NCBI GenBank assembly: GCA_963796255.1
Contig: CAWCLE010000010.1
Location: 125,765-189,764 of the forward strand
DNA length: 64,000 nt
From: an uncultured delta proteobacterium
Lineage (GTDB): Bacteria > Desulfobacterota > Desulfobulbia > Desulfobulbales > Desulfocapsaceae
Direction: 5' to 3'
This document shows, piece after piece, positions 1,847 to 58,581 of this stretch. The translations under genes were made by a program, and so were the position numbers. Position 1 is the stretch's first letter. Every line of letters begins with the position of its first letter. Under the pieces are notes generated by a model. That model made no database searches. It was not told the DNA's origin and was given only the letters and a program-made list of their open reading frames with translations.

Positions 1847-1952
1847 CAGCAGTCTTTTTTAATTGATACCAGCCCGCAATCAGTGGTATTCATTGTGGTA
1901 AATAAAACTACTTGATGCAACACCATTCATTCCAGCTTCAAACCTATACTTT

Positions 1953-22420: not shown

Positions 22421-22470
22421 ATTGAAACATTTTTTATCGATTATAACCAGTTATGTTTCAATATGAAATA
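22413..22470. promoter_or_regulatory. Candidate activator-binding UAS: a perfect 18-bp inverted repeat with a 22-bp spacer
   Basis: TATTTCATATTGAAACAT (22413-22430) and ATGTTTCAATATGAAATA (22453-22470). Each arm contains the dyad TTTCA-N3-TGAAA. The UAS ends 73 bp upstream of the sigma-54 -24 element. Confidence 0.55.
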
Positions 22471-40558: not shown

Positions 40559-42064
40559 ATGCTGCTTGTCCACCCACCACTGACCAAGCCCTGCGAACCG
40601 CCGGCAGCACTGGCCTACCTCTCTGCTGCCCTTACCGCCCATGGCCACTTGTGTACGATCTGCGATATGAATATCGAAGGTCTGCATTTCCTCTTCAAGA
40701 CGGCTCAGCCGGCTGAAGACACGTGGTCGAAACGAGCGTATAAACATCTGCAAAAGAATATTTCGGCACTTAAGAGCAGAAAAACCTATAACAATGCCGA
40801 TAAATATCGCCGGGCAGTAGCGGATACCAACCGCATCCTGGAAATGGCAGGAAAAGGATTTGGCGTCCAGCTGTCGCTGGCCAACTATCAAGATGAAAGT
40901 AAATCTCCTTTACAAAGCGATGATCTGCGTCTGGCCGCCGAGACATATGCAACCAATATTTTTTTCCCTTACTTCAGTAAAAGGCTCGATGAGCTGCAGG
41001 CAACCGACAATTCCGGCTACATTGGTTTTTCTCTGAATTATCTCAGCCAGGCATTGTGCACCTTCGCCATGATCGGATATCTGAAAGCACAATATCCGAG
41101 AATGAAAATCATTGTCGGTGGTGGTCTAATCACCACCTGGTTGAGCCAGCTCAAAGGGCACAATCCTTTTGTTGGGCTGATAGATCATCTTATCGGCGGT
41201 CGCGGGGAACAGCCTTTGCTGCAGTTACTGGGAACCCCACAAAAATTGACACATGTGCAGCCCGATTTCACTCTTTTGAAGAGCAACAGCTATCTTGCTC
41301 CGGGGTTCATCCTTCCCTACGCCAGCTCCTTTGGCTGTTTCTGGAAAAAATGCAGCTTCTGCCCGGAAACCAGTGAGGACAACCCTTATCAGCATGTCGC
41401 AGCGGGCACCACCATAGCCGATCTGCACGCCTTGACCGCCGAAACCTCTCCTGCCCTGCTGCATCTGCTCGATAATGCAATCAGTCCGTCAACCCTGCAT
41501 GCCGTGGTCGATAATCCCCCTCCGGTACCGTGGTATGGCTTTGCCCGCATCGAAAAACTTTTGGCTGACCGAAATTTTTGTCGCCGCCTGCATAATTCCG
41601 GCTGCAGGATGCTCAAACTCGGTCTTGAATCAGGCGATCAGGAAGTGTTAAACAAGATGCATAAAGGAATCGATCTGCAGCTTGCCGCACAGATACTAAA
41701 AAACCTGCATGACGCAGGTATTGCTACCTATGTCTATCTGCTGTTTGGTACCCCGGCCGAGAGTCATCAGCAGGCTCTGCGCACGCAGTCATTTGTGGAA
41801 GAACATCACCAGACGATCGATTTTCTTAACCTGGCGATCTTTAATCTGCCTGCCGGTAGTCAGGAAATTGCAAGTCTGGAAATCGCTGATTTTTATGAGG
41901 GAGATCTGTCAATGTATCGCAGTTTCAACCATCCGAAGGGCTGGAACCGGGGTGAGGTGCGGCGTTTTCTGGACAGTTCGTTCAAACGATCCCCTGACAT
42001 AGCTGCTATCCTGCGCCGCGACCCCCCTTTTTTTACTTCAAACCATGCGCCGTTTTTCTCTTAG
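40559..42064 (+). CDS. Radical SAM protein with a B12-binding-like N-terminal domain and a CX4CX2C cluster motif
   Basis: 501 aa. The N-terminus MLLVHPPLTKPCEPPAALAYLSAAL resembles class B radical SAM enzymes. The cluster motif is FGCFWKKCSFCPE. The core motif is LKLGLESGDQEVLNKMHKG. Confidence 0.7.
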   Translation: MLLVHPPLTKPCEPPAALAYLSAALTAHGHLCTICDMNIEGLHFLFKTAQPAEDTWSKRAYKHLQKNISALKSRKTYNNADKYRRAVADTNRILEMAGKGFGVQLSLANYQDESKSPLQSDDLRLAAETYATNIFFPYFSKRLDELQATDNSGYIGFSLNYLSQALCTFAMIGYLKAQYPRMKIIVGGGLITTWLSQLKGHNPFVGLIDHLIGGRGEQPLLQLLGTPQKLTHVQPDFTLLKSNSYLAPGFILPYASSFGCFWKKCSFCPETSEDNPYQHVAAGTTIADLHALTAETSPALLHLLDNAISPSTLHAVVDNPPPVPWYGFARIEKLLADRNFCRRLHNSGCRMLKLGLESGDQEVLNKMHKGIDLQLAAQILKNLHDAGIATYVYLLFGTPAESHQQALRTQSFVEEHHQTIDFLNLAIFNLPAGSQEIASLEIADFYEGDLSMYRSFNHPKGWNRGEVRRFLDSSFKRSPDIAAILRRDPPFFTSNHAPFFS

Positions 42065-42078
42065 TTGCATTGAGCAAC
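42064..42078. promoter_or_regulatory. Dyad GTTGCATTGAGCAAC, the same motif class as the three dyads at 58170-58461
   Basis: The arms GTTGC/GCAAC are perfect with a 5-nt spacer. The dyad lies 113 bp upstream of the REC-Lon ATG. Confidence 0.4.
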
Positions 42079-42190
42079 CCGTGCGTATCCCTATTTTCCT
42101 CACAACTTAAAGGGTACTTTTTCTGGGCAATGTGGTAGAGAGAAAAGAAAACAACAACGGTTTACCCCAACAGACGAGGACACCCCAACT

Positions 42191-44242
42191 ATGTTATTTA
42201 GGAAAAAAACCAGCCCCGACGCTCCCCCTCCCGAGCAGGCAGAAAAAGAAGAGACACCTCTTGACAAGCTGCGTCAAAAGATCGATGCGGCCAATCTCCC
42301 CCAGCATGCCCTTGATGCCGCCAATAAAGAACTGGATAAACTGACCACCACCGATGCGGCGGTCGCCGAATATTCCGTCGGTCTCAATTACATCGAACTG
42401 ATCAGTTCACTGCCCTGGAATATTTCTACCAAGGGAACCCTCGATATGGCCCGGGTCCAGTCCATTCTTGATGGTCGCCACTGCGGGCTAGGCCAGGTAA
42501 AACAGCGCATTCTTGAATTTCTGGCAGCAAAAACCCTGCGCGGCAGTGCCAGACAGAACATCCTTATCGTCGATGATGAAGATATTGCCAGGACGAATAT
42601 GGCCCACGTCCTGAGCAAAGACGGCTATGGCTGCAAAACCGCCGAAAATGGGATAGTTGCGTTGAAGGTACTGGCGGAAGAGGATATTGATCTGATCATC
42701 AGCGATCTGAAAATGGACCATATGGATGGTCTGGAACTGCTGCATGAGGTCAATCACAGCTATCCGGAAATTCCGGTCATCGTGGTGACCGGCTTTGCCA
42801 CGATCAATTCGGCGGTGCAAGCGATGAAAAGCGGTGCCGCGCATTATCTCGGCAAACCTGTCAATCTGGATGAATTGCGCAAAACCGTTCGCGAGGTTCT
42901 AGACCAGAAACTTACCAGTGAAATGGGTAAAGGCCCGATTCTCTGCTTCACCGGCCCTCCGGGTACCGGCAAGACCTCGGTGGGCAGGGCAATCGCCGAG
43001 GCCCTACAGCTCCAGTTTATCAGGGTATCCCTGGCGGGGCTGCGCGATGAGGCGGAACTCCGCGGTCACCGACGGACCTATGTAGGTGCCATGCCCGGAC
43101 GGGTGATCATGGAACTCAAAAGAGCGGCGGTGAACAACCCGGTCTTTATGCTCGATGAGATCGATAAGATCGGCCAGGATTTTCGCGGCGACCCGGCGTC
43201 GGTCATGCTTGAAGTCCTCGATCCCGAGCAGAACGTTAAATTTATGGATTCCTATCTGGATATTCCTTTTAACCTGTCGCGGATCATGTTTATCGCCACC
43301 GCCAATGATGTATCGCTGTTACCCGGACCGCTACTTGACAGGATGGAACTCATTGAGTTTACTGGCTATACCGAAAAGGAAAAATGTCAAATTGCCCGGG
43401 ATTTCATTCTCCCCCGACAGCTCAAAGCGGCCGGCTTGAACACCCTCGGCATTGTGTTTTCCGACGCAGCCCTGTCACGGATTATTGGTGATTACACCAG
43501 AGAATCGGGCTTGCGCAACCTGGAAAGAGAAATTGCCAATGTCTGCCGGAAACTGGCGCTTATCTATCTCGACTCGAAAAAAACCGTGCTCGACACCAAA
43601 GTTGAAGCGAGCACCATTACCACGCTTCTTGGTCCGCGAAGGTTTATCAGAAATATTGCCCAAAGCGAACCAAAGGTGGGGATAACCACCGGCCTGGTCT
43701 GGTCGACCATCGGCGGCGAGATCATCAGCGTTGAAACAGCGTCCATGGAAGGCTCCGGTAACCTGTTACTTACCGGTTCTTTGGGCGAGGTATTGCAGGA
43801 ATCGGCTCAAGCGGCTTTAAGTCTTATCAGGAGCAGATCGGCTGAGTTCGGCATAAAAGAATATTTTTTTAAGGACATGGATATTCACATCCATTTTCCG
43901 GCCGGTGGCATTGCCAAAGACGGTCCTTCCGCTGGAATCACCATCTTTGCCGCGCTGCTTTCCCTGCTGACCAACCGACCCGCACGAAGAGATATCGCCA
44001 TGACCGGAGAAATGACGCTGAGCGGACGAATCCTGCCTATCGGTGGTATCAGGGAAAAACTGCTGGCGGCGCAGCGGGCAGGTATAAAGACGGTTCTTTT
44101 ACCCCTGGCCAATAAAGAAGAGGTGGAGATACTGCCACCCGATGTGCTGGAAAATCTCGAGATAGTGCTGGTGGAAAATGCCGACGAGGTGATTCCCCGG
44201 GTATTGCTCGGAGCAGAGCAGGCGGCAAGAAAAAAAGAATGA
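42191..44242 (+). CDS. LonA-type protease lacking the N-terminal substrate domain, with a REC receiver inserted before the AAA+ module
   Basis: 683 aa. A Lon helical segment ([12 protein letters not shown]...[18 protein letters not shown]) is followed by a REC domain ([10 protein letters not shown]...[14 protein letters not shown]...VIVVTG...GKPV). Next come [30 protein letters not shown] and DEIDK. The protease catalytic Ser (KDGPSAG) and Lys ([10 protein letters not shown]) motifs are present. Confidence 0.85.
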
Positions 44243-44243
44243 T

Positions 44244-45605
44244 TTACGACTCCGGATCGTCCAGACCATAGCGCTTAATCTTGCGCCATAAAGAAACGCG
44301 GTCGATATTCAATATTTTGGCCGCTTGGGATTTATTGCCTTCGGTCTCATCGAGGACCTCGAGGATATAGTTTTTCTCGTGTTCTTCAAGCGACGGCCAG
44401 GATTGCTGTGCTACCCGGGAAGGGGACACGGAACTGCTGTGCAGATCCTCAACAAGATGGGATGCTTCAATAAGCTCGCCGTCACACTGGAGCAGCAGCC
44501 GCTGGGCAATATTCTCCAGTTCCCGGACATTGCCCGGATATTCGTATTGCTTCAGGTGCTGCACCACTTCCGGGGACAACCGCGGAATAGTTGCCGAAGG
44601 CGGGGAATGTTTGGCCAAAAAATGGTTGACCAGGATGGGGATATCCTCTTTTCGCTCGGTGAGCGAGGGCACCTTTATGGTTAACACATCAAGCCGGTAA
44701 AAAAGATCCAGCCGAAAGGCGCCGCTTTCAGCCTCCTTTTTCAAGTCCTTATTGGTGGCGGCGAGTATACGGATATCAATGGGAATTTCTTCGGTACCGC
44801 CGACCCGCATCAGGGTACGTTCCTGGAGAACTCTGAGCAGTTTCACCTGCATCGACAGGGAAAGCTCCCCGACCTCGTCAAAAAATACCGTGCCACCTTC
44901 AGCCAGCTCGAGCAGCCCTTTTTTTATTTGTGAGGCACCGGTAAACGCCCCTTTTTCATGGCCGAAAAGCTCGCTGGAAATCAGCTCTTCGGTAAAAGCA
45001 CCGCAGTTAAAAGCGACAAAGCGGTGGTTTGATCGGGGGCTGAGCTCATGGATTGTCCGGGCCACCAATTCTTTACCGGTCCCCGTTTCCCCCTGAATCA
45101 ATACGTTGCAGTCCAGCTGGGCGACCTGCATGATGCTCTCGCGCAGCAGTTGAATCTTCAGACTCTTACCGAGGATTTTGGTTGCGCCGGTGGTCGAGGA
45201 GACCTGTCTTCTCAGTTCAATAACTTCTTTGCTGAGCGTCCTTTTTTCCAGGGCTTTTTCAACCAGCGCCAGCATCTCTTCTTTTTTGACCGGCTTGGCC
45301 AGATAATGATAGGCTCCTTTTTGGATTGCCTCGACCGCGGTGTCGACACTGGCATACCCGGTAATGACAATCACTTCAGTTTGCGGCCATAATTCTTTGC
45401 AGACGCCCAGCACCGCCATGCCGTCCTGACCCTTCATGCGCAGATCAGTCAAGACCAGATCGACTTCCCGGTTCTCCAGCAGGACAATCGCCTCCTGCCC
45501 ATTGGCGGCGGTAAAAACTTCGTAGCCTCCTTTTTTCAGGATATACTCGACATTGTCGCGGGCAATCGCCTCGTCATCGACGACCAGAATGCGTTTTCCG
45601 CTCAT
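44244..45605 (-). CDS. NtrC-family sigma-54-dependent response regulator, cassette B
   Basis: REC domain ([10 protein letters not shown]...[14 protein letters not shown]), Walker A GETGTGKE, the GAFTGA loop and an HTH ([22 protein letters not shown]). Confidence 0.9.
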
Positions 45606-45654: not shown

Positions 45655-47121
45655 TCAGCCAACTCCTATCCACGGCGTTTCTCCCTTTTCCTGGTCCGGC
45701 TCTATCGGCAGATGAATAAAAAAGGATGCCCCCTTACCGGCCACACTTGTAACCACTATCCTGCCATTATGCTTCTGGATAATGCCATAGGCGATAGACA
45801 GGCCCAGCCCGGTGCCCTGCCCTTCTTCCTTGGTCGTGTAAAAGGGATCAAAAAGCCGATCTTTAATCTCATCAGCAATCCCAACGCCGGTGTCGGTAAT
45901 TTCAATTATTGCCGCATTGTGCTCCTTATTAAGCGAAGCTGAAAGCGAGATCTTACCTTCACCGACGATAGCCTGGGACGCGTTGATGATCATAATAATC
46001 AACACTTCCTGTATCTTCTGCACATCCATTGGGACAAACAGATTGTTTGGTATATCGACAGTTATATGTATTGCCGAAGAGACATGACTCTTCACCAGTT
46101 TTACCGATCGGTTCACCACATCCTGCAGGTTGGCCGGATGCAGCTCGAACTCCTTGACCCGGGAAAATTCCAGCAGCCCCTGAACAACATCTCTGGCCCG
46201 ATAGGTTTCCTGCTCGATGTTCTGCAACATCTTTTTGATAAACGCCGGATCGCCGGTATCAAAATCATCGACGGCTATCTGACACGAGGTCGAGATATTA
46301 TTTAGCGGATTATTTAACTGATGGGCAATGCCGGCGGTAAGGGTACCGATTGATGAGAGTTTTTGCGACTGCACCAGTTGGTCCTGGCGACGCTCCAGTT
46401 CCCTCACCATGGTATTGAAAGCCTCCATTACCTGCTGCATTTCATCCCTGGTATCCAGGACCTCAACTTTGCTGAAACGACCAAGGGCGATATCCTCGGT
46501 TGCCTCTTTAATGATGCGCAGCGGCTTAAAGATACGAAAAGACATGATGAGTGGAATAAAAATGCCCACCGCAATCGCCACCATAGACCAGACAACAAGA
46601 CGGGATACCAGCTCATCGAGAATAATGCGGATCTGGTTATGTTCAAAACTGACCAGCTCCTTGCTGAGCTCGGTCATTTCCTGTCCCTGGTAGCGAATTT
46701 GATCTGCCGGTTCGCCGTGCACTGCATCCCGGTTGACCAACCATTTTTCCGACAGGCCGGCCATGCCTTCCTGGTAGGCAACAGTCAGGTTTTTGAGTTT
46801 TATGAGCAAGGGTTGGACTTTAAATTTGGCGGTCCGCTCGGAAATGATCGCCATTGTCTGCAGGGCCAGGGTCAATTGCCTGCTGTTTTCTTCCAGAGCT
46901 TCTTTCGTTCCGTAGAGGAAAAAATTCTTCTCATAGCGGCGGACTTCAAGAGTAATACTGTTGAGGGTATAGGCGAGTTCCAGGGTTTCCAATTTTTCTT
47001 TAGCCGTATTCAGGTCTTCCTGAGAAACAATGAACATGGCTAGAATACCGAAGATATAACATCCCAGGATGAAGAGGATCTTATAACTTAAACTCATCGA
47101 TGGTATTGTAAACTTGCTCAT
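45655..47121 (-). CDS. Sensor histidine kinase, cassette B (paralogue of 20897-22420)
   Basis: H-box AGIAHQLNNPLNNI and G boxes DTGVGIA and GTGLGLS. The sensor motif EVRRYEKNFFLY corresponds to EVRRFEKNYLIY in the cassette A kinase. Confidence 0.85.
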   Translation of the reverse strand: MSKFTIPSMSLSYKILFILGCYIFGILAMFIVSQEDLNTAKEKLETLELAYTLNSITLEVRRYEKNFFLYGTKEALEENSRQLTLALQTMAIISERTAKFKVQPLLIKLKNLTVAYQEGMAGLSEKWLVNRDAVHGEPADQIRYQGQEMTELSKELVSFEHNQIRIILDELVSRLVVWSMVAIAVGIFIPLIMSFRIFKPLRIIKEATEDIALGRFSKVEVLDTRDEMQQVMEAFNTMVRELERRQDQLVQSQKLSSIGTLTAGIAHQLNNPLNNISTSCQIAVDDFDTGDPAFIKKMLQNIEQETYRARDVVQGLLEFSRVKEFELHPANLQDVVNRSVKLVKSHVSSAIHITVDIPNNLFVPMDVQKIQEVLIIMIINASQAIVGEGKISLSASLNKEHNAAIIEITDTGVGIADEIKDRLFDPFYTTKEEGQGTGLGLSIAYGIIQKHNGRIVVTSVAGKGASFFIHLPIEPDQEKGETPWIGVG

Positions 47122-47490
47122 TTTTCACTCCACATACCATTTCTCCAAGGCCTTTCCCGCAAGGCAGGGGAGCGAGCCCCGCCGGGTTAATAATTAACGT
47201 TTTTCACCATATACCAAGACGATGGCGAACACAACCAAATCGTTGTCGCAAAAGTCTCCGTCCGAAGGGCCGCTCCTACAAAAAGGTGCCGCAATATTGT
47301 TGCGCCGCAACTCGGCCGCGGCATAGCCCTAAATCGTAGTAATTAATCTATATATCGATTGTCTTCATAAGAAAATGCATTATTAGTGTTGCACAAGATC
47401 GGAGCATTTCAATCTGCTGCCAGGTTTGCTGGAGATTCCATCTCTTCTTTATTGGCCCCGCTCTGTCGATAATTCTTTAGAATCGTTGAG

Positions 47491-47510: not shown

Positions 47511-47588
47511 GGATCACCGGGCACTTGCGGCTTGGTGCACTTGCCGACGGAGGAAAAGCTGGGTGATTCGACAATCGGTTATTTTTTT

Positions 47589-47604
47589 TGGCATAGAGGT
47601 TGCT
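47589..47604 (+). promoter_or_regulatory. Sigma-54 promoter of cassette B
   Basis: TGGCAT-AGAGG-TTGCT is near consensus. It is followed by a leader of about 165 nt before the ATG at 47770. Confidence 0.7.
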
Positions 47605-47769
47605 ATTACAAGATGGCACCTTGCGCGTAGACGGGATAATGAATTTTTCACTTATTTGACAGGTCGATGCAGGCTTTTATGGAAGGAGGGTGACAAGTAG
47701 GCAATGGAAGCAGGACGGTAATTTTAATGTCCAATATTAATTAATTATTTTTAATTCATGAGGGGTGTA

Positions 47770-48921
47770 ATGACAAAGAATCAACGGATTTTTTTGTTTG
47801 CAGCGTTGATGGTCCTGACCATTGGCATATGGCTTGAACCGGCCTGGGCCGGTAAACTGCAGGACGCTATTGCGTCGGTTCCGGAAGGGACCGGCAGTGG
47901 GCAGATTGACCCCACTCAACCGGCCGGTTTTCTTGGTATTCCCGGCGGCCCCCAGGTAAATCTGATTCTTGCATTCTTCTGGGCGGTATGGGTGGGCTGG
48001 ATTTTTTCTACCGTGGGTGCCTTTGGCGGCGTTATGGCCGGTGTCGGTCACATGAGTATTTTCGGTCTTGGTGGCTACGCTAAATCTTTCAAGGAAACCG
48101 CTCCTTCCCTGAATAAAGCAATCACCGACTCCATTCGCGGCTCGAACCAGTATCTGGTCGGGCTGTCGGCTCTTATCTCGTCTTTCAACTATTACCGCAT
48201 GGGCCGCCTCGTCGTACCCCTGGCCGTATCTTTAGGACTAGGCTCCATTCTTGGTGCCTGGGGTTCCGTAACCCTCTCCGCCGGCAAAATCTCCTTTTCC
48301 CAATATCAGGGGTATTTCGGTCTTTTTGTTTTGGCTCTCGGTATCTATCTCTTCTACGAGACCTCCTCTAAAGGGCAAGCCAGCAAGAAAAAAGCCAAAT
48401 CGGCCGCCCAGGCCTTCGAGGCCACGGTAAAAAAACAAAAAAGCGGTGAGAAAATCGATACCGCTGCACTCGGCGTTAAAGTAACCAAGTTTTCCCTGAC
48501 GGAAGTTTTGTTCACATTTTATGGGGTTGAGTTCCGGTTTAATCCATTAATTCCTTTTGTCGGTGGTATCGTCATTTCCGCAGTCGCGGCCTTTCTAGGC
48601 GTGGGCGGCGGTTTTCTCCTGGTCCCCTTCCTGACCAGTGTTGCCGAACTGCCGATGTATCTGGCTGCTGGAACCTCGGCTCTTGCCGTACTGATCAGCA
48701 TGATCACCAGTATAATCACCCTTATCTCCAAGGGGGTTCAGTTCGATTGGATGCTGATCGGCCTGGAACTCGTCGGTATCGCTGTTGGTTCTATTATCGG
48801 GCCCAGAACATCGAAATATTTCTCCGATCTCTGGCTCAAGCGCTTATTTATTGTCCTCGCTTTGTACGTAGGTATTGACTATGTTCTGAGAGGTTTCTTT
48901 AACTACAGAATATTCGGTTAA
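47770..48921 (+). CDS. TauE/SafE (TSUP) family permease with an N-terminal extension
   Basis: The preferred ATG is at 47770, after GAGGGG (the ORF track starts it at 47758). Motifs are GAFGGVMAGVGHMSIFGLGG and FLGVGGGFLLVPFL. Confidence 0.8.
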   Translation: MTKNQRIFLFAALMVLTIGIWLEPAWAGKLQDAIASVPEGTGSGQIDPTQPAGFLGIPGGPQVNLILAFFWAVWVGWIFSTVGAFGGVMAGVGHMSIFGLGGYAKSFKETAPSLNKAITDSIRGSNQYLVGLSALISSFNYYRMGRLVVPLAVSLGLGSILGAWGSVTLSAGKISFSQYQGYFGLFVLALGIYLFYETSSKGQASKKKAKSAAQAFEATVKKQKSGEKIDTAALGVKVTKFSLTEVLFTFYGVEFRFNPLIPFVGGIVISAVAAFLGVGGGFLLVPFLTSVAELPMYLAAGTSALAVLISMITSIITLISKGVQFDWMLIGLELVGIAVGSIIGPRTSKYFSDLWLKRLFIVLALYVGIDYVLRGFFNYRIFG

Positions 48922-48945
48922 GCAGTAAATCATCTTGGCTTCAAA

Positions 48946-48969
48946 GGCTCCGGGCTAATCCCCGGAGCC
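48946..48969 (+). other. Intercistronic GC-rich stem-loop
   Basis: GGCTCCGGG-ctaatc-CCCGGAGCC has a perfect 9-bp stem. It lies between the TauE stop (48921) and the next start (48976), and no clear T-tract follows. Confidence 0.5.
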
Positions 48970-48975
48970 TCTATT

Positions 48976-49539
48976 ATGAACTCATTCAGCCCGTTTTTCC
49001 TTGTGCTTGACCCCTGGCTCATCGCGCCCTTTCGCTGGCTGCCATCAGCTACTGCCGGATACCTCCTGGGAGTCGTCGTACTCGCCCTGTACTGCATCAT
49101 TGTCGGCGATCTCTCCGCGACGGTGGTTACTTATTTCAACACTAAATATATCAGAAAGATCCAGGGGAAAATGGATCACCATCACCATCTCTCGGAGCAA
49201 GCCCTGATGATGGGCGACAAAGAGAGCTATAAAGCGGTCAACAGCCAGGCCCTTGATGCTTTTGGCCACTCTTTTTCGCTTGGCGCGGCAATCTTTTGTG
49301 TCTCCATCTGGCCTATGCCTTTCGCTCTCGCCTGGTTGAATCTACGCTTTGCCGATGCCCCATTGGAACTTCCAGTCCATCTGCCGTTTCTTGGCAACAC
49401 GATCGAATATTTTCCCTCGTTTCTCCTCCTCTATATTGCAACCAGAATGATCTACTCCTTTATAATGCGCAAATTTACCTGGTATTCCGGGACCAAAGCA
49501 AGACTCTCCGGGCAGACTGCCCCTGAGGTTCTTTCTTAA
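48976..49539 (+). CDS. Membrane protein of unknown function
   Basis: 187 aa with about 4 hydrophobic helices and a central His run (KMDHHHHLSEQ). I recognised no family. Confidence 0.5.
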   Translation: MNSFSPFFLVLDPWLIAPFRWLPSATAGYLLGVVVLALYCIIVGDLSATVVTYFNTKYIRKIQGKMDHHHHLSEQALMMGDKESYKAVNSQALDAFGHSFSLGAAIFCVSIWPMPFALAWLNLRFADAPLELPVHLPFLGNTIEYFPSFLLLYIATRMIYSFIMRKFTWYSGTKARLSGQTAPEVLS

Positions 49540-49546
49540 CGTATCA

Positions 49547-52009
49547 ATGAGTAGCTCTTCGCCAGCAAAAAAGGATTCGATCGGCTTGAGTTGCCTCTGG
49601 CGATATCGTTTGATGGAGATTTTTGCACCGGGGAAACTGCTTCGCCATAAATATGCCGCTTTTCGCCAGGTGCTGCGTCTCGACAGTCGGGCCCTGGATC
49701 TTCTGGCCGATCTGGAAGCACATATCTTCGGTCAGAACCCTGCCGATCCTTATCGAATTCGCCTGCTCTGCCGGCAAATCACCGATACGGTCGGTGCCAT
49801 GGCGGACCAGCTCCAGGCCATGAACCCGCCGGCTTACCGGCAATTATTTGAAAAACATGCGGCATTAAGCATCGCAATCAAGGCCCTGCTGGCAGCAGCC
49901 AGCCCGCAAAGCACTCCGCCCTATATTCTTACACTCCAGGAAGCTGCCGATTATCCGGAGCTGGCCGGCGGTAAAGCGGCCAACCTGTCGGCCGCCGGTC
50001 GTGTCGGAGTGCCTATTCCCCGCGGTTTTGTTATTACTTCGCGCGCCTTTCAGCGTTTTATCTCTGATAATTCCCTGGAAAAGGAACTCGAGGCGCGGTT
50101 CCAGTTGGTCCAGGCCGATGACAATGCCACGATTATCCAGATCACCGGCGAACTGCAGGAGCTTATCCTGGATGCCGAGGTTCCGGCTGATATTGCCGCC
50201 CAGATAGAACAGCAGGTCAAAGCCCTGCAGCCCGTCGAGCGGCTCGCCGTTCGATCCAGTGCCCTGGCCGAGGACGGCCAGGTGTCATTTGCCGGCCAGT
50301 ATGCCAGTGAACTCAACGTTGATCCTGCAGAAATCATCGCCGCCTACAAAAGAGTCATCGCCGGAAAGTATTGCCCCCGCGCCATAAGCTACCGCATCCG
50401 CCATGGTTTAAGCGATGCTGATACCGCCATGGCAGTGCTGGTCATACCGATGATCCAGCCGCACACCTCCGGGGTGATCTATACCCTTGATCCAGGAACC
50501 ACGACGGCCAGAGACTTGGTTGGAATTTATGCGGTGGCGGGTTTGGCGGAAGGTCTGGTCGATGGGTCAAGAACGCCAGCCAGATACCATCTACCGCGAT
50601 CAGATGAACTCATTTCCCCACTACAGTCTGCGGCATCTGCGGATCTTCTGCTTAGTCTGAACGAATTGCAGCAATTAAGACGCTGGGGATTGCGGCTTGA
50701 GGCACTTTTTGGCTGTCCGCAGGATGTTGAATGGACCCTTGATGATGGCGGCTTGACTGTTCTGCAGAGTCGGCGCCTGCATCAGAAAAAGGATCCGCCT
50801 CCGGCAGCAGTTCAGGCCGTCGACCTTACTCGCCTGTTGCATAGCGATTTGCATTGTGCTTCGGCAGGAATTGCCTGTGGTCCGGTTTTTCATGCGCCAA
50901 CCGGTGGAAGCTTTGCGAAAATTCCCGCCGGATCGGTGGTTGTTACCACGACACTTCGCCCGGCCCTGTCCCAGTTTCTTGACCGGGTGGTCGGCGTCAT
51001 TGCCGAGAGCGGCAGCCGGGCCAGCCATTTTTCCTCGGTGGCTCGAGAGCGAAACATTCCGGTACTGGTCGGTAGTGGGATAAGTCTTGAAGAAAATCAG
51101 GTGGTCACCGTCGACGCTGCCTCGGGCAGGATATTCAACGGCTGTGTCAATGCCGTACTGCACATTGGCAGCCTCAACCCCAATAAGGATTTTCCGCAAG
51201 AAAAGTATGTGGGACTGGCCAGCCATATAACGCATCTGCATCTTACCGATCCGGACAGCGACAATTTCACGCCGTCGCACTGCCAGTCGATGCATGACAT
51301 CGTACGTTTCTGTCATGAAAAAAGCGTCCAGGAGATGTTTCGCCTCATAGGACGAAAGGGCAGAGGCTTAGGTAAAGCCCAAAAACTGGTCACCGATCTG
51401 CCCTTGGTCCTCTATGTTCTCGATCTCGAACCGAGCTCGACTGCCCGGGCAGGCACCACGATCACCCTGGATGAGCTGAGCAGTCTGCCCATGCGAGCCT
51501 GCTGGCAGGGGATGTCAGATCCACGAATAAACTGGGACACCAGCCAACACCATGTCGATTGGGAAGGCTTTGATCAACTCAGCGGCGGCATTTTTTCCCT
51601 CGATTCTCGGCTCTTGGCCAGCTATGCTATAGTTTCTCAGGAATACCTGCATCTCAATATTCGTTTTGGCTACCATTTCTCCATCGTCGATGCCATCTGT
51701 AGCGAACAGGCCGGCACCAACTATTTGAATTTTCGATTCAAGGGTGGCGGTGCCGCAGAACAGCAAAAAGCTTTCCGTATCGAGTTCATCGATCGGGTCC
51801 TTACCACTTTTGGTTTTGAAACCTCCAGCCGAGGCGACATGCTCGATGCCGCCTTCGCCCGCGCGCCTCTGGCCGAGACTACACGCGCCCTCAGCCAACT
51901 CGGCATGCTGCTTGCCGCCACTCGATTGATGGACGTGCGCCTGACCAGCACCCGACAGGTCGCCGAAGAAGTTGAAAATTTTATCAGTCTTGCCGGCAAA
52001 ACAACCTGA
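49547..52009 (+). CDS. PEP-synthase-like phosphotransferase P3 (intact ATP-grasp, swivel His, same C-terminal domain)
   Basis: 820 aa. Motifs are AGGKAANLSAAG...RGFVITS, AVRSSALAEDGQVSFAGQYASELNV, PQDVEWTL...VLQSRRL, SGSRASHFSSVARERNIPVLV and IRFGYHFSIVDAI...YLNFRFKGG. Confidence 0.8.
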   Translation: MSSSSPAKKDSIGLSCLWRYRLMEIFAPGKLLRHKYAAFRQVLRLDSRALDLLADLEAHIFGQNPADPYRIRLLCRQITDTVGAMADQLQAMNPPAYRQLFEKHAALSIAIKALLAAASPQSTPPYILTLQEAADYPELAGGKAANLSAAGRVGVPIPRGFVITSRAFQRFISDNSLEKELEARFQLVQADDNATIIQITGELQELILDAEVPADIAAQIEQQVKALQPVERLAVRSSALAEDGQVSFAGQYASELNVDPAEIIAAYKRVIAGKYCPRAISYRIRHGLSDADTAMAVLVIPMIQPHTSGVIYTLDPGTTTARDLVGIYAVAGLAEGLVDGSRTPARYHLPRSDELISPLQSAASADLLLSLNELQQLRRWGLRLEALFGCPQDVEWTLDDGGLTVLQSRRLHQKKDPPPAAVQAVDLTRLLHSDLHCASAGIACGPVFHAPTGGSFAKIPAGSVVVTTTLRPALSQFLDRVVGVIAESGSRASHFSSVARERNIPVLVGSGISLEENQVVTVDAASGRIFNGCVNAVLHIGSLNPNKDFPQEKYVGLASHITHLHLTDPDSDNFTPSHCQSMHDIVRFCHEKSVQEMFRLIGRKGRGLGKAQKLVTDLPLVLYVLDLEPSSTARAGTTITLDELSSLPMRACWQGMSDPRINWDTSQHHVDWEGFDQLSGGIFSLDSRLLASYAIVSQEYLHLNIRFGYHFSIVDAICSEQAGTNYLNFRFKGGGAAEQQKAFRIEFIDRVLTTFGFETSSRGDMLDAAFARAPLAETTRALSQLGMLLAATRLMDVRLTSTRQVAEEVENFISLAGKTT

Positions 52010-52151
52010 CCACTGCTGCAAAATGTAGTTTTCCTTGTAATTTCTAGACAATTCCTGACTTTTTTTAAAAAATCTGGACAAAAACAGCAAAATAAAGATA
52101 CCATATTTAGTAACCGTTATGCTGTCGAAGAAAAATTTAATGAGGATTACT

Positions 52152-52763
52152 ATGAACAAAATGTCCCCCCCGTTGCCCCTTTATCGGCTTATACCAGCAG
52201 TGGTTCTTTGCTCTTTTCTGATCGCCGGATGTGCATCTTCACCCACGGAAGTCAGATATGATGACCGGATGAAAACAACTACAGCCAACCAGTACGAAAA
52301 AGTGTCCGCCCGCTATATCCTCCGTCCGGGGGATCGGCCTGATTTCAAACCACAGGCAAAACAGGCGGCAGCTGACTGCGGTCAGGTAACTGCTCAGCCG
52401 GCTGCTGCACCACAGCGTATCGATTTACAACTCGTCCTCGAGGCATCAGACATCCTGTTTGCATTCGATAAATGGGTTATTCGAGCCGAAGTCGTCCCCG
52501 AGTTAGACCAGTGGGCCAACTACTTCCAGCATAATCCCCAGGAAACGGCTAAAATTGACGGCTATACCGACAGTATAGGTTCAACTGGGTATAACCAGAC
52601 CCTCTCCGAGCGACGGGCCGAAGCGGTGAAGAATTATCTGATCAAAAAAGGGGTTGACCCAAAAAGATTTGTCACTAGAGGCTTTGGCGAGACTCAACCG
52701 GTAGCATCGAACACCACCGCCGAAGGACGACAAAAGAACCGGCGGGTTGAGCTGAAGTTCTAG
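52152..52763 (+). CDS. OmpA-family (Pal-like) lipoprotein
   Basis: The preferred ATG is at 52152, after GAGGA. The lipobox is LIAGC. The OmpA_C motif is FAFDKWVIR...IDGYTDSIGSTGYNQTLSERRAEAV...NRRVEL. Confidence 0.8.
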   Translation: MNKMSPPLPLYRLIPAVVLCSFLIAGCASSPTEVRYDDRMKTTTANQYEKVSARYILRPGDRPDFKPQAKQAAADCGQVTAQPAAAPQRIDLQLVLEASDILFAFDKWVIRAEVVPELDQWANYFQHNPQETAKIDGYTDSIGSTGYNQTLSERRAEAVKNYLIKKGVDPKRFVTRGFGETQPVASNTTAEGRQKNRRVELKF

Positions 52764-54485: not shown

Positions 54486-55361
54486 TCAGGCAATGCTTTT
54501 AACTACCTGTACCGGGCAGGTTGCAAGAGCAGCGACCCGCTCGACCACACTGCCTAAAAGGCTATCACTCACACCGGAATAGCCGCCTTTTGAGCCCAAA
54601 ATAATATGCTGAATATCGTTTTTTTGAGCATAGCCTGTCAGACATTTTCCGGGAGAGGCTTCCTGTAACTCGGTCACGACACGTAATCCGAGCCGCTCTC
54701 CCTCCCTGGTGAGAGCCTCCAGAGCTTTGAACCCCTTTTGTCTGGCGTCTTTTAACACGCCGTAACGGAAACTCTGCTCCGTAGATACATCGATAGCCGT
54801 AACGGCATGAACCTCACTGCCGTAGCTTCCGGCCAGGTCGAGTGCTCGCAGTCCTGCTGCTTTACTTGCAGGAGTTCCATTAATACCAACGAGGATTTTC
54901 CCAAAGCGAATTTCCGATATTTCCGGCACAAGCATGACGTCGCAGGGACTGCCGGCAATTACTTTCGAGCTCAAACCCCCGAACAACACCAGTTCGACCT
55001 TCGACCGCTTGGCATTGCCAAGAACAATCAGGTCAACGCCTCGTTCCGCTGCCACCTCAACTATTTCCTCACTCGGTTCACCTGTCCTATGGATGGTCTG
55101 AACTTCGAATCCTAAGGACGCTGCATAGGATGCTACATCCTCAACACTCTTTCGAAACGGTTCACTGAGTTGTCTATTTGCATCTTCAATTTTCAGACGG
55201 CTCATATTCCCTTCATATTTGGGGGTCACACCGACAACCAACAATTTTGCACGCATCGATGACGACAATGCCAGGGCCTGTTTGAAAGCTGATCGACTGA
55301 CATGGGAAACATCGACAGCTACCAGTATTGACTCCATCATCGCACACATATTTGCACACAT
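54486..55361 (-). CDS. Tandem universal stress protein (two USP domains)
   Basis: 291 aa with two repeats of the USP pattern (ILVAVDVSHVS...; ILVGINGTPAS...). The C-terminal repeat has an ATP-loop-like GSKGG...LLGSVVERV. The start is ambiguous among M1, M8 and M9. Confidence 0.8.
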   Translation of the reverse strand: MCANMCAMMESILVAVDVSHVSRSAFKQALALSSSMRAKLLVVGVTPKYEGNMSRLKIEDANRQLSEPFRKSVEDVASYAASLGFEVQTIHRTGEPSEEIVEVAAERGVDLIVLGNAKRSKVELVLFGGLSSKVIAGSPCDVMLVPEISEIRFGKILVGINGTPASKAAGLRALDLAGSYGSEVHAVTAIDVSTEQSFRYGVLKDARQKGFKALEALTREGERLGLRVVTELQEASPGKCLTGYAQKNDIQHIILGSKGGYSGVSDSLLGSVVERVAALATCPVQVVKSIA

Positions 55362-55513
55362 GTTTGCCCCTGCTTCTGTGCTCTTGCAAGGGAGTTCACT
55401 TCACTCTCCGCGCTGAACATATTCACCAGGATTATCGCAGCTTTCGTCATAATTTGTTTATTCTCAGCTAAAAGTCCGTGCATAATTTTCTTCTCCTGTA
55501 GTGCGGCGAAACC

Positions 55514-56233
55514 TTATGCTCCTGTTTGAACCCGTGACTTGCTATCCGAACGTTTATCAACAACTGTAGATTCTTCAAACTTTGTCACAACAGGAGCCTT
55601 TGAGCCAACGATCCCAAGAGCAGACCACAAATTATTAACGAGGGTTTTCATCCAATAGCTTTTTTTGTTTGCCGATGCAGTGTGTCTTTCTTCCAGTAAC
55701 TTTTTGTTTGCCTCGCGATTGTCAATCATCTCTCCCGTTCGCGAATCAGTGCAAACGATGTTGAAGACCGGAACAGGTGAACCAAAAGCCGCCTCTTCAA
55801 TTTTTATTCCCTGATCAATAAGAACGAACTCAATTCTCTTTACAATACGGCATAATCTGCTGATTATTTTACTTATTTTTCCTGATTCCTGGACATACTC
55901 AAAGTCCACTCCTCTGACAACTGCTTTCTCCTTAAATTCTATGGCGTTCTGCTCAATTGCTGAGGCAAATTGTTTGTGATACAAGTCGCCGTTGCCAAAA
56001 AGTGGCGAAGTATTTACATAGGTGGCCAGTATCTTGCATTTCATTCGATCAGCTACGTTGACCGCATAGTCCATTACCGGTTCGGCCAGACGACTCCCCC
56101 TGGTCACCAGGAGGATGCAGGACTGTTTGGCCAGACTGCACTGTTGCGAAAAATCGTCGGCGTGGTCGATCTTAGACTTATGCAAAACCGTTAGTGGTGT
56201 AACGTTGCGATGTATTTTCTGATCCATAACCAA
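55514..56233 (-). CDS. Hypothetical protein, possibly a divergent USP/adenine-nucleotide-alpha-hydrolase-like fold
   Basis: 239 aa. CILLVTRGSRLAEPVMDYAVNVA...KILATYV resembles a USP beta-alpha start, but no ATP motif is present. The call is weak. Confidence 0.35.
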   Translation of the reverse strand: MVMDQKIHRNVTPLTVLHKSKIDHADDFSQQCSLAKQSCILLVTRGSRLAEPVMDYAVNVADRMKCKILATYVNTSPLFGNGDLYHKQFASAIEQNAIEFKEKAVVRGVDFEYVQESGKISKIISRLCRIVKRIEFVLIDQGIKIEEAAFGSPVPVFNIVCTDSRTGEMIDNREANKKLLEERHTASANKKSYWMKTLVNNLWSALGIVGSKAPVVTKFEESTVVDKRSDSKSRVQTGA

Positions 56234-56263
56234 CCTTTTGCCTCATCCACTCATCCTATTTTA

Positions 56264-57598
56264 TCAACCGACGGCATCATTTACGGCTTGCCCCTGTCTT
56301 TCTGTTCGATCCAGAAGCATACCTTTAACCATAGCGGCAGTAATTATAATACCAGCCACTCCCAGAGCCACCATCAATGCCCAGAAACTTACGCCATCGA
56401 GCACAGCAAAGAGTTGCTGCTTCAAGCGAGGAATAAGATCCAGATCAGCGAGATAAATCGGTACTTTTGCCCCCCGCGATACAGCGACAATCAGCATAAC
56501 CGCTGCCATGACCAGCTTAATCGTATAATCTTTGACATAGGTCGTCCCAAGTGCCCCCAATTGTACGCCGATCAGTGATCCCGCCAGAATGAGCAAAGTC
56601 ATGCGAATATCGATAAGACCGGCTATTCCCCACTGGATGGAACCAAAAGCGCCCATGACAAAGGCAACAACCAGCTCGGTAGCACTGGCAACCATGGCCG
56701 ATGCACCAACCACATAAATCATTCCCGGCACGCCGATAAAGCCGCCCACCGCAATAGTTGCTGCCAGCATTCCGGTAAAGAGACCAACGGGAACCGTTAT
56801 CCAGGCAGAGATACGCACTCTCGCCACTTTAAACTCCATCATGGGCCAGAGCTCAATTTTTTGCAGTCTCAAGGCGAGGTTCGATGTTTTGGCCTCGGTT
56901 GCTCCTTTAGTCATCGTTAAAGCATCACGCAGAATGTATCCACCAACAATGGCCAGAACCAGAACGAAGACCACACTCACATACAGATTAGAGCCTGCAT
57001 TGCCCCAATGATTGAGGATCATCTGTTGAATTCTTATACCGATCTCAACCCCAATAATCGCGGTTACCGCCATTACTAAGCCAAGCTTTATATCGACTTG
57101 TCCGTATTTCCAGCGCTTATAGGCGCCGACCATGGCCTTGGGAAACTTATGGCACATATTACTGGCCACCGCCACCGCACCTGGGGCTCCCAGAGACATC
57201 ATCGCCGGAGTAAGAACAAACGCTCCTCCAGAGCCGATGAAGCCAGAAAGCAGACCTCCAATAAGCCCGATGATAAGCAGGGCAATAACCTTGGTGACGG
57301 TCATTTCAAAAAACATCAATGAGATGTCTTTGATCACATTTGGTCCAGCATTGGGATCAAGGCTGACCATAACTTTTTTATCAAGAACTATCTTGTCGAT
57401 GTTCACTTCCGGACCAATATTCAAAATTCTTAAATCATCATGTCCGTCAATTTTTATAGTTACCGTTTTAGCCGTTGGATCAAGCTGGGTAAATACACCT
57501 TTCATCACGTTTTTGGGTGGCGGGCCACCTGCATAGGCACTGTGTACCAGTAGGGTGCCTATCAATACTGTCATTAAAATAGTTAGAAATTTCTTCAT
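56264..57598 (-). CDS. TauE/SafE (TSUP) family permease with a signal peptide and an N-terminal periplasmic domain
   Basis: 444 aa. The signal peptide is MKKFLTILMTVLIGTLLVHSAYA, followed by a soluble segment of about 90 aa. Permease motifs are GFIGSGGAFVLTPAM and IAVGGFIGVPGMIYV. Confidence 0.8.
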   Translation of the reverse strand: MKKFLTILMTVLIGTLLVHSAYAGGPPPKNVMKGVFTQLDPTAKTVTIKIDGHDDLRILNIGPEVNIDKIVLDKKVMVSLDPNAGPNVIKDISLMFFEMTVTKVIALLIIGLIGGLLSGFIGSGGAFVLTPAMMSLGAPGAVAVASNMCHKFPKAMVGAYKRWKYGQVDIKLGLVMAVTAIIGVEIGIRIQQMILNHWGNAGSNLYVSVVFVLVLAIVGGYILRDALTMTKGATEAKTSNLALRLQKIELWPMMEFKVARVRISAWITVPVGLFTGMLAATIAVGGFIGVPGMIYVVGASAMVASATELVVAFVMGAFGSIQWGIAGLIDIRMTLLILAGSLIGVQLGALGTTYVKDYTIKLVMAAVMLIVAVSRGAKVPIYLADLDLIPRLKQQLFAVLDGVSFWALMVALGVAGIIITAAMVKGMLLDRTERQGQAVNDAVG

Positions 57599-57647
57599 GA
57601 GTTCACTTTCTCCTGCATGCGGTGATAGGTTGTGCTACCTGTTAAGA

Positions 57648-57992
57648 TCAAGCTTTCTTTGGCTCAAGCCCCAGAACACTGAGTAAATTGCTGGCGAAAG
57701 CACCGTGCACGAATGAAAACAAGAAGGCAGTACCAACGGGAAGCGCTGCGTACCATCCACCCAACGTAAAAGTATCTGTAACGAGCTTCATGTTGGATAA
57801 TAACAGGGCATAAGCACCTAAGGACATCGCTCCAAAGAGAACCATTTTACCGATTGGCTTTTTCTTGCGATAGGTAGTTTGGGTCCTTTTGGTTGTGGCA
57901 GTCGTTTTACTGACACTGCCGGTCGTCGATTTGCGAGTGGTTTGGTGAACTGACAACTGCGTTTGACGAGGATCATTTTGTCTCATTTCCAT
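57648..57992 (-). CDS. Small membrane protein (basic Thr-rich N-terminus, two TM helices)
   Basis: 114 aa. It is the first gene after the minus-strand sigma-54 promoter. I recognised no family. Confidence 0.5.
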   Translation of the reverse strand: MEMRQNDPRQTQLSVHQTTRKSTTGSVSKTTATTKRTQTTYRKKKPIGKMVLFGAMSLGAYALLLSNMKLVTDTFTLGGWYAALPVGTAFLFSFVHGAFASNLLSVLGLEPKKA

Positions 57993-58087
57993 TTCTCCTT
58001 TAGAATGAATAGTAAGTTACTTGGTATATTTTTCAGCCAACAGCTAATTATGTAGAGGAGATGATACTGAACCTTTCCTGGAAATAT

Positions 58088-58103
58088 TGCAATCTTGATG
58101 CCA
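58088..58103 (-). promoter_or_regulatory. Sigma-54 promoter of the cassette C minus-strand operon
   Basis: The minus strand reads TGGCAT-CAAGA-TTGCA, near consensus, about 95 nt upstream of the start at 57992. Confidence 0.7.
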
Positions 58104-58169
58104 ACCCTTGAAGTCAATATAATTCAATTATTACAAATATATACATGACTACCAACAAAGGTAATTTTC

Positions 58170-58184
58170 GTTGCATTATGCAAC
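58170..58184. promoter_or_regulatory. Dyad GTTGCATTATGCAAC, candidate activator site 1
   Basis: The dyad is perfect (TTGCA-N3-TGCAA inside GTTGC/GCAAC). It lies between the two divergent sigma-54 promoters. Confidence 0.5.
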
Positions 58185-58260
58185 AAAATATCGATCTACT
58201 ATCGGATATAGTACAAAATATTAGATAGTTATATTGATAATTTGTGGATTTTTCTCTGGT

Positions 58261-58275
58261 GTTGCATAAAGCAAC
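58261..58275. promoter_or_regulatory. Dyad GTTGCATAAAGCAAC, candidate activator site 2
   Basis: It has the same outer arms GTTGC/GCAAC and lies 91 bp from site 1. Confidence 0.45.
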
Positions 58276-58446
58276 CTGAGTTTATCTTTCAGGACCGGAG
58301 CCGGTAGGGATTCACCACGCTCTTTAAATGGGGAACAACGTATCTATCGTATTGTTATTATGTATTTTATTTTACACTCTTTAAGAAAAATTCTGTCCGA
58401 CATAAACTGATTACCAACTGGACACTACGTTTTACGTTTACGAGAC

Positions 58447-58461
58447 GTTACATTATGCAAC
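58447..58461. promoter_or_regulatory. Dyad GTTACATTATGCAAC, candidate activator site 3
   Basis: It differs from site 1 at one position. It lies 121 bp upstream of the plus-strand -24 element. Confidence 0.45.
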
Positions 58462-58581
58462 GGCCCCTGCAATTATCTCCGTTTATCGAAACAATATAAA
58501 TCACATAATTTCATAGAGATAAACTGTTTACTCAGGAACATTGTAACAGTGCATTGGAAAATGGAATAAAACCGTATAGAA

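Follow-up and report, generated by a model that had tools for sequence, protein, structure and literature searches.

How does a receiver domain of the two-component type come to lie inside a Lon protease, and what might it do there? Lon is usually seen as a constitutive quality-control protease that is regulated through substrate degrons, adaptors and allosteric ligands. The question is raised by a gene, here called REC-Lon, in a stretch of 64,000 nucleotides (positions 125,765 to 189,764 of contig CAWCLE010000010.1, assembly GCA_963796255.1) from an uncultured member of the Desulfocapsaceae; this whole stretch is referred to below as the window. A first-pass annotation, made from the letters alone, had described the product as a Lon protease without its N-domain that carries a receiver (REC) just upstream of the Walker A motif, and this description is confirmed by Pfam, by alignments with PDB structures and by conserved residues. 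The reading favoured here, to which we give a probability of roughly 0.6, is that ATP-dependent proteolysis is activated when D172 is phosphorylated, while sigma54-dependent transcription of a TauE/Usp operon runs in parallel. A Lon with a receiver in place of the N-domain, wired to a dedicated kinase, would link an environmental signal directly to regulated proteolysis, beside a sigma54 response.

Pfam divides the predicted protein into Response_reg (residues 124-233), AAA (251-390), Lon_lid (412-463) and Lon_C (470-672), with E-values as given in Table 1. The receiver scores 99.8 bits against Response_reg, for which the gathering cutoff is 30.2, and has all diagnostic residues; by NCBIfam it resembles receivers of the NtrC family, for example those of AtoC, GlrR and NtrC. 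Among the Lon models of NCBIfam, TIGR00763 (lon) matches with 698.6 bits (cutoff 608) and NF008053 with 570, below its cutoff of 891. Pfam finds no match to PF00158 or HTH_8, which sets the protein outside the sigma54 enhancer-binding proteins and confines its likeness to NtrC to the REC. By analogy, REC-Lon may nevertheless operate like the NtrC-family proteins, with a REC controlling an AAA+ ring, though it is not a member of that family.

The point of insertion was located by phmmer alignments against the PDB. Residues 24-118 correspond to residues 10-104 of the B. subtilis Lon chain in 3m6a, which make up the pre-AAA helical bundle, and residues 239-677 to residues 100-535 of the same chain. 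The N-deleted construct of M. taiwanensis LonA (4ypl) aligns likewise, with chain residues 7-101 covering the pre-AAA segment. Residues 100-104 of the 3m6a chain (QKLTK) pair with REC-Lon 114-118 and also with 239-243, which places the REC within the C-terminal end of the last bundle helix, directly before AAA+ beta1. Judged from these alignments, the REC is a clean insertion of ~120 amino acids (aa) between the last bundle helix and AAA+ beta1. In the AlphaFold2 (AF2) model, which has a mean predicted local distance difference test (pLDDT) of 72, with ~85-90 in the REC and values below 50 for residues 1-22, the helices of the N-terminal part span residues 23-33, 38-53, 59-73, 86-96 and 101-119. 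The last of these leads into REC beta1 (123-127), and REC alpha5 (226-246) leads into AAA+ beta1 (250-254), with linkers of ~3 residues each. A Foldseek search of the model against the PDB returned ordinary LonA structures only.

The N-domain of Lon is absent: Pfam has nothing N-terminal of residue 124, and Lon homology begins at residue ~23, which corresponds to MtaLonA ~242, where the engineered N-deleted constructs start (4ypl). The open reading frame (ORF) had been said to begin at the pre-AAA helical segment itself; the segment is present, but ~22 residues precede it. Throughout the family the bundle is preceded by an M-x-F-F-[KR]-K motif and a variable, Glu-rich low-complexity linker. 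The motif is found in 210/224 full-length homologues, with F at position 3 in 221/224, and because it is conserved the start codon can be taken as correct. A mis-called start that hides an N-domain is ruled out by this motif together with the gene on the 5' side, an unrelated B12/radical-SAM gene that ends 126 bp before REC-Lon. The N-terminal motif could be a tethered degron, a pseudo-substrate or a partner-binding peptide.

A frameshift or mis-assembly joining a stand-alone REC gene to a truncated lon, an alternative that the first-pass annotation had itself raised, or a decaying pseudogene, would make the architecture an artefact. Relatives were collected from 90%-identity clusters, the best 120 being taken for each of two queries, the window protein and a Desulfovibrionaceae member. 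With the window protein, all 120 have REC, AAA and Lon_C, are 641-731 aa long (mostly 674-700) and 68-96% identical, and come from named sources that include Desulfopila, Desulfosediminicola, Desulforhopalus, Desulfobulbus and Desulfomarina. An exact-sequence look-up gave no record of the window protein; matches at 93-96% identity suggest a Desulfopila-like member of the Desulfocapsaceae as its source. With the Desulfovibrionaceae query the architecture is identical in all, with sources in Fundidesulfovibrio, Humidesulfovibrio, Desulfovibrio sp. TomC, Thermodesulforhabdus and Syntrophobacter, under annotations that vary from 'endopeptidase La' and 'S16 family serine protease' to 'response regulator' and 'Lon protease 2'. 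The architecture is common to more than 240 protein clusters and recurs as one ORF of 669-700 aa in independent isolates and metagenomes. The junction segment alone was also compared with 1.84 billion representatives at 50% identity, and ~25 clusters matched it without a break. A genome scan with a 4-sequence junction alignment as query located the full junction at at least 14 loci, among the matches listed, in Desulfobulbales, Desulfocurvus, Desulfovibrionaceae, Desulfomonilaceae, Desulfobacter vibrioformis, Desulfocapsaceae and Thermodesulfovibrionales.

The geometry of the junction is equally constant. The spacings from LPW to DD (54), from DD to K (94) and from K to Walker A (33) are the same in 237/237 measurable full-length members, and at identities as low as 38% the linkers still differ in length by no more than 1-3 residues. 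Across 240 sequences, which share 50-96% identity with the window protein, sixteen functional residues never vary: D128, D129, D172, T200, Y219 and K222 in the REC; K261 and T262 of Walker A (GPPGTGKT), D322 and E323 of Walker B, pore-loop Y297, sensor-1 N372, Arg finger R384 and sensor-2 R442 in the AAA+ module; and S580 and K623 in the protease. The AAA+ and Ser-Lys motifs are therefore as intact as had been reported. Stop codons and frameshifts are absent. With every catalytic residue intact, the N-terminus conserved and the junction spacing uniform across so many clusters, mis-assembly, frameshift fusion and pseudogene are excluded as explanations, and we consider the chance of any such artefact negligible.

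A protein of this kind has an earlier record in D. vulgaris Hildenborough. DVU3303, annotated 'ATP-dependent protease La, truncation', was described by Rajeev et al. 2011 (PMC3333781) as a response regulator "containing a lon protease"; with the kinase DVU3304 and the sigma54-dependent regulator DVU3305 it makes up a three-component system, and phosphorylation-dependent proteolysis was suggested for it in the same paper. According to the paper, DVU3305 binds 5' of two operons, its own and the divergent DVU3302-3298 for membrane and UspA-type proteins, and there are linked orthologues in other Desulfovibrio species, Thermodesulfovibrio, Thioalkalivibrio and Dechloromonas (PMC3333781). Trotter et al. 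2023 (PMC10102598) found pairwise cofitness above 0.9 for DVU3303:DVU3305, with genes that are detrimental in chlorate, a condition in which the target anion transporter DVU3299 is important. The window gene belongs to this DVU3303 family, which has been on record since 2011; the Desulfovibrionaceae members within the REC-Lon family include those of loci L008 and L014.

The surroundings of REC-Lon were compared by mapping the window's neighbour proteins onto 15 related loci. A kinase and activator pair lies within a few kb of REC-Lon in 13/15, with activator orthologues that are 47-73% identical to the window activator. This pair, called cassette B in the first-pass annotation, is convergent with REC-Lon in the window, as stated there (Table 1), and has the same arrangement in seven loci (L002-L005, L008, L014, L015); the D. 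vulgaris-like order lon, kinase, activator is seen in L007 and L013. In 12/15 loci REC-Lon is adjoined by a module of a small membrane protein and TauE; 11 of them have it divergent, and in L001 it lies upstream in the same direction. Usp was found in 9/12. The window operon with these functions is the counterpart of DVU3302-3298. Both systems combine REC and Lon in one polypeptide (annotated as a truncated La in DVU3303) with one histidine kinase and one sigma54-dependent regulator, have, behind a sigma54 promoter, a linked operon that encodes membrane, anion-transporter (TauE) and Usp proteins, and place an activator dyad, GTTGC-N5-GCAAC, upstream of the lon gene and of the target operon. 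They differ in layout: lon, kinase and activator follow one another in a single operon in D. vulgaris, with the target divergent, whereas in the window kinase and activator are convergent with lon, the target operon is ~14 kb off, and a single dyad and no recognisable sigma54 promoter are left at lon.

The proposed tie between REC-Lon and a two-component kinase gains from this synteny and from specificity residues that the two receivers share. A gap-free alignment of 122 residues gives 41% identity between the Lon REC and that of the neighbouring activator, and same-locus pairs are 39-56% identical. In a neighbour-joining (NJ) tree, the clade of Lon RECs is sister to that of the activator RECs, and both stand apart from most of the other NtrC-type RECs sampled. 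Both sets have the alpha1 sequence DDExIARxN[LM]xHxL and 'HY..KP', whereas alpha1 is variable and 'DY..KP' is found in other NtrC-type RECs. Alpha1 and the beta5-alpha5 region are the main kinase-contact determinants in two-component specificity. We infer a single shared kinase because the RECs are sister clades with common specificity residues in these two regions; the comparison supports a branched pathway in which one kinase would phosphorylate both the activator and Lon, and the kinase in the window is the presumed phosphodonor for both RECs. Concerted evolution of the two RECs within a locus was also considered and is rejected, as same-locus identity is not above cross-locus identity, which points to an old duplication and not to gene conversion.

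The dyad ties REC-Lon to the same activator. In the supplement of Rajeev et al. (PMC3333781), an electrophoretic mobility shift assay (EMSA) probe from the DVU3303 upstream region, AAAGCCTCGTGTTGCGATATGCAACACGAGGCCAC, which contains GTTGCGATATGCAAC, is shifted by DVU3305, and a probe with the dyad mutated is not. Since the intact probe shifts and the mutated one does not, the dyad is a defined binding site of the activator's orthologue. Exact GTTGC-N5-GCAAC sites occur in the 64 kb at 42064, 58170 and 58261 only, all of them intergenic. The dyad core lies upstream of REC-Lon in 9/15 related loci, mostly in two copies; in L001 three copies precede a sigma54 promoter whose operon has REC-Lon as its last gene. 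A dyad common to the lon upstream region and to the control region of a 'cassette C' had been noticed in the first-pass annotation, and the sites are indeed there, but the motif is not that of a separate cassette C regulator; the DVU3305-type form of the site rules this out, as does the fact that the control region is the ancestral lon-divergent region. By sequence relationship, 'cassette C' is the target operon of the adjacent cassette B activator, separated from lon by a rearrangement.

This rearrangement can be followed in close relatives. In L082 (Desulfopila sp. IMCC35006, 93% identity) and L083 (86%), the TauE module lies between the radical-SAM gene and REC-Lon. Window positions 57960-58500 match the TauE-lon intergenic region of L083 colinearly at 83% identity, the target promoter (Table 1) is homologous to the promoter in that region, and the last ~110 bp before the window lon ATG are homologous to the lon-proximal segment of L082. 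These homologies indicate that the window holds a derived rearrangement which split an ancestral divergent control region; on this comparison, one dyad was left with lon, and the promoter and the other dyads went with the target operon, now ~14 kb away. The breakpoint is seen when window 42040-42190 is set against L082 9660-10010 and L083 9310-10010; in these relatives the radical-SAM gene and lon are separated by two or three dyads and a divergent TauE/Usp module, 3.3 kb long in L082 and 4.2 kb in L083. The conserved lon-proximal elements CCTCACAACTTAAAG and AAT(A/G)TGGTA are kept in the window, and the second of them may be an extended -10 element. No sigma54 -24/-12 element (GG-N10-GC) was found between 42079 and 42190, upstream of the window lon. 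In three loci of Desulfobulbales (L002-L004), a TGGAAT-N5-TTGC sequence that keeps the -24 GG and -12 GC is situated ~70-300 bp upstream of REC-Lon and downstream of dyads; these are possible non-consensus sigma54 promoters for lon, with no equivalent in the window.

The first-pass annotation had proposed that phosphorylation gates the activity or oligomerisation of this Lon, a reasonable but hypothetical interpretation that the literature had anticipated. On the favoured reading, REC-Lon would serve as the response regulator with proteolytic output in a branched 'three-component' system, the orthologue of DVU3303-3305. One kinase would phosphorylate the activator REC and, at D172, the Lon REC, and phosphorylation would alter the alpha4-beta5-alpha5 face of the latter. 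Because REC alpha5 runs straight into AAA+ beta1, the change could be passed on rigidly via alpha5 into beta1, the nucleotide-binding core and the ATPase ring, and the fixed length of the REC connections also suggests a relay through alpha5. In the CheY fold the N- and C-termini of a REC are close together, which suits it to insertion in a loop with the host domain undisturbed. The most likely effect would be to switch ATP-dependent proteolysis on, and one stimulus would then feed a transcriptional arm (the TauE/Usp operon) and a post-translational arm in parallel. As to substrates, MtaLonA 242-793 ('AAAP', Tzeng et al. 2021, PMC8087443) has wild-type ATPase and peptidase activity and degrades disordered casein; it fails on unfolded Ig2 and aggregates, which the N-domain recognises. 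These limits of an N-deleted LonA suggest that REC-Lon is specialised and not a general quality-control protease, its selectivity or activity depending on the REC. The substrates would be a narrow set, probably disordered or adaptor-delivered, and not the pool of damaged proteins for which the missing N-domain is needed.

A bolder version, which we advance only tentatively, is that REC-Lon is perhaps the first receiver built into an AAA+ protease as a cis phospho-switch, with D172 phosphorylation mechanically gating ATP hydrolysis or pore access and the FF[KR]K peptide, at the end of its flexible acidic tether, acting as a pseudo-substrate, degron or plug that depends on the state of the REC. 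The literature searched offered no such mechanism. If true, it would mean stimulus-dependent destruction of specific proteins in sulfate reducers, perhaps TauE, Usp or the activator.

The pairing of two similar receivers can also be taken to mean that the Lon REC is a docking module, which would select its substrate by forming an alpha4-beta5-alpha5 heterodimer with the activator REC, as in NtrC-family dimers; the activator would be degraded, or would recruit the protease, in one phosphorylation state, with feedback on the transcriptional arm. Some other selector is needed where the N-domain is absent, an N-deleted LonA handles disordered substrates only (PMC8087443), and the two RECs form sister clades, with the same-locus identities given above, in proteins that are encoded together in 13/15 loci. 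The heterodimer is, however, conjectural, and destruction of the activator predicts opposite mutant phenotypes, yet the cofitness is positive and above 0.9 (PMC10102598), a conflict that polarity could mask. Invariant D172, T200, Y219 and K222 fit docking and phospho-gating equally, and the two models are not mutually exclusive; we consider docking unlikely. It is more improbable still that the Lon REC is a phosphate sink, competing with the activator for phosphoryl groups of the kinase, beside a protease that is constitutive and independent of phosphorylation. Sink receivers occur in other branched pathways, and the family has one kinase with two receivers in most loci and specificity residues common to both RECs. 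A sink, however, needs no ATPase-protease of 560 aa in which all catalytic residues stay the same across 240 sequences, nor fixed-length, indel-free linkers from REC to AAA+.

Several points weigh against activation of proteolysis by phosphorylation at D172, or loosen its supports. The inter-domain geometry of the AF2 model is unreliable (predicted TM-score, pTM, 0.41; TM-score 0.4-0.5 to LonA structures), and the docking mode of the REC, sought from AF2 and Foldseek, was dropped as uninformative on account of the same pTM and global TM-scores. The REC tree is an unbootstrapped NJ tree of ~120 columns. Orthology to DVU3303 is presumed from architecture, taxon, synteny and the shared cis-element. 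The D. vulgaris cofitness could partly be transposon polarity, because DVU3303 heads the DVU3303-3305 operon (order from PMC3333781). With one dyad only and no recognisable sigma54 promoter at the window lon, co-regulation with the regulon is uncertain here. The literature searched holds mentions of D. vulgaris only and no biochemical or structural study of any REC-Lon; control could be by activation or by inhibition, and could act on the ATPase, on pore access or on assembly. To this extent the earlier remark that a characterised REC-Lon is not known stands, although the architecture was already recorded for DVU3303 (PMC3333781).

Set beside canonical LonA (E. coli, B. subtilis, M. taiwanensis; endopeptidase La, MEROPS S16), REC-Lon has the same three-helix bundle, AAA+, lid and S16 protease (E ~1e-160), with the same pore loop, Arg finger and Ser-Lys dyad, but it is without the ~240-aa N-terminal substrate-binding domain and has a 120-aa REC and the family-specific N-terminal FF[KR]K motif. 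The engineered AAAP (MtaLonA 242-793, 4ypl, PMC8087443) begins at the corresponding residue, and its core of bundle, AAA+ and protease is the same; it is a laboratory truncation without REC, whereas REC-Lon is natural and conserved. The sigma54 activators NtrC, NtrC1 and DctD carry a REC of the same subfamily directly N-terminal to an AAA+ alpha/beta domain and provide a precedent, in that REC phosphorylation controls assembly or activity of their AAA+ ring. In contrast to them, REC-Lon is without GAFTGA loop, sigma54-interaction domain and helix-turn-helix (HTH), its output is proteolysis and not transcription, its REC separates the helical bundle from the ATPase core, and 33 residues link K222 to Walker A. 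RssB and CpdR are separate response-regulator adaptors that act in trans on ClpXP; they likewise tie two-component phosphorylation to proteolysis by an AAA+ protease, but in REC-Lon the receiver lies within the protease polypeptide and the protease is Lon.

A receiver within Lon is unusual and readily testable, but it had been discovered earlier and is not a rarity in databases. Sulfate-reducing and related anaerobes, in which the family is common, matter for sulfur cycling, souring and corrosion, and in D. vulgaris the family is associated with stress and chlorate phenotypes. Beyond the records of 2011 and 2023, the present analysis adds the exact insertion topology, the rigid indel-free linkers, the sister RECs with common specificity residues, the N-terminal motif, the conservation of the cis-element across phyla and the rearrangement that explains the local layout.

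Table 1. Coordinates of REC-Lon, its parts, its control elements and the linked genes in the window
Feature	Position	Strand	Description and basis
REC-Lon gene	42191..44242	+	683 aa; LonA-derived ATP-dependent protease, N-domain absent, receiver inserted; ORF, Pfam, NCBIfam, PDB alignments
Residues 1-22	42191..42256 (preceding 42257)	+	MLFRKK (consensus M-x-F-F-[KR]-K), then variable acidic low-complexity linker; homologue alignment, pLDDT
Residues 23-119, Lon pre-AAA helical segment (three-helix bundle)	42257..42547	+	PDB alignments, AF2 helices
Residues 122-246, REC domain, beta1 to end of alpha5	42554..42928	+	PF00072, E 1.3e-28; pLDDT
REC acidic pocket D128/D129	42572-42577	+	Coordinates checked
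REC phospho-acceptor D172	42704-42706	+	Other REC residues: T200, Y219, K222
Residues 247-468, AAA+ module (alpha/beta subdomain and lid)	42929..43594	+	PF00004, PF22667
Residues 470-672, Lon S16 protease domain	43598..44206	+	PF05362, E 2.6e-78
Protease dyad Ser580 / Lys623	43928-43930 / 44057-44059	+	Both invariant in 240 sequences
Dyad GTTGCATTGAGCAAC	42064-42078	.	126 bp 5' of REC-Lon ATG; overlaps radical-SAM stop codon; DVU3305-type site form
Sigma54 -24/-12 promoter TGGCATCAAGATTGC, near-consensus	58103..58089	-	Drives small membrane protein (114 aa), TauE, 239-aa protein, tandem Usp
Upstream activating region	58170..58461	.	Dyads GTTGCATTATGCAAC 58170-58184 and GTTGCATAAAGCAAC 58261-58275 exact; 58447-58461 one mismatch
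NtrC-type response regulator/sigma54 enhancer-binding protein (REC-Sigma54_activat-HTH_8, GAFTGA)	44244..45605	-	Pfam; presumed DVU3305 orthologue
Membrane sensor histidine kinase (HAMP-HisKA-HATPase_c)	45655..47121	-	Pfam; presumed DVU3304 orthologue
Target operon	54486..57992	-	114-aa membrane protein 57648-57992; TauE/SafE anion transporter 56264-57598; 239-aa protein 55514-56233; tandem Usp 54486-55361; Pfam

Two groups of proteins met in the searches for relatives depart from the REC-Lon plan. P0138, P0140 and P0146 are ~380-aa relatives, 35-37% identical, in which the bundle-REC-AAA junction is present; Walker A is degenerate (GPSETGKA, TSGSDDRKA, GPSYEAHLS), as is Walker B, and all three stop at one point past the AAA+ alpha/beta subdomain, with lid and protease absent. 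They may be a family of pseudo-ATPase paralogues. P0150 (997 aa) and P0200 (1075 aa) are Lon proteins with two tandem AAA modules, two Lon_lid matches, a single Lon_C and no REC, an unusual double-ATPase architecture.

A second TauE block occupies 47758-52763. A near-consensus sigma54 promoter, TGGCATAGAGGTTGC, at 47589-47603 (+) lies upstream of the second TauE paralogue (47758-48921), after which come genes for a 187-aa protein, an 820-aa PPDK_N/PEP-utilizer protein and an OmpA-family protein. The intergenic region before the TauE gene has no GTTGC-N5-GCAAC dyad; all that is present there is GTTGCGCCGCAAC at 47299, whose spacer is N3, and, at ~47520-47545, the direct repeat GCACTTGC...GCACTTGC. 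The block also follows the kinase in Desulfopila sp. IMCC35006 (L082). The 114-aa, 239-aa and 187-aa neighbour proteins were assigned to no family by NCBIfam, nor were the 239-aa and 187-aa proteins by Pfam.

Paralogous proteins with a PEP-utilising mobile domain stand beside each of the two TauE modules, one of 897 aa at 58683-61376 (+) and one of 820 aa at 49547-52009 (+). The 897-aa gene starts just past the one-mismatch dyad at 58447 and the control region that was split. In the 15 loci, neither protein turned up within 8 kb of REC-Lon, but L082 has the 820-aa gene. Two more GAFTGA sigma54 activators are encoded at 1902-3908 (+) and at 19530-20921 (-) with 20900-22450 (-), so that sigma54 signalling modules are plentiful in the window. 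One of the two adjoins a HisKA-type kinase and is probably what the first-pass annotation called 'cassette A'.

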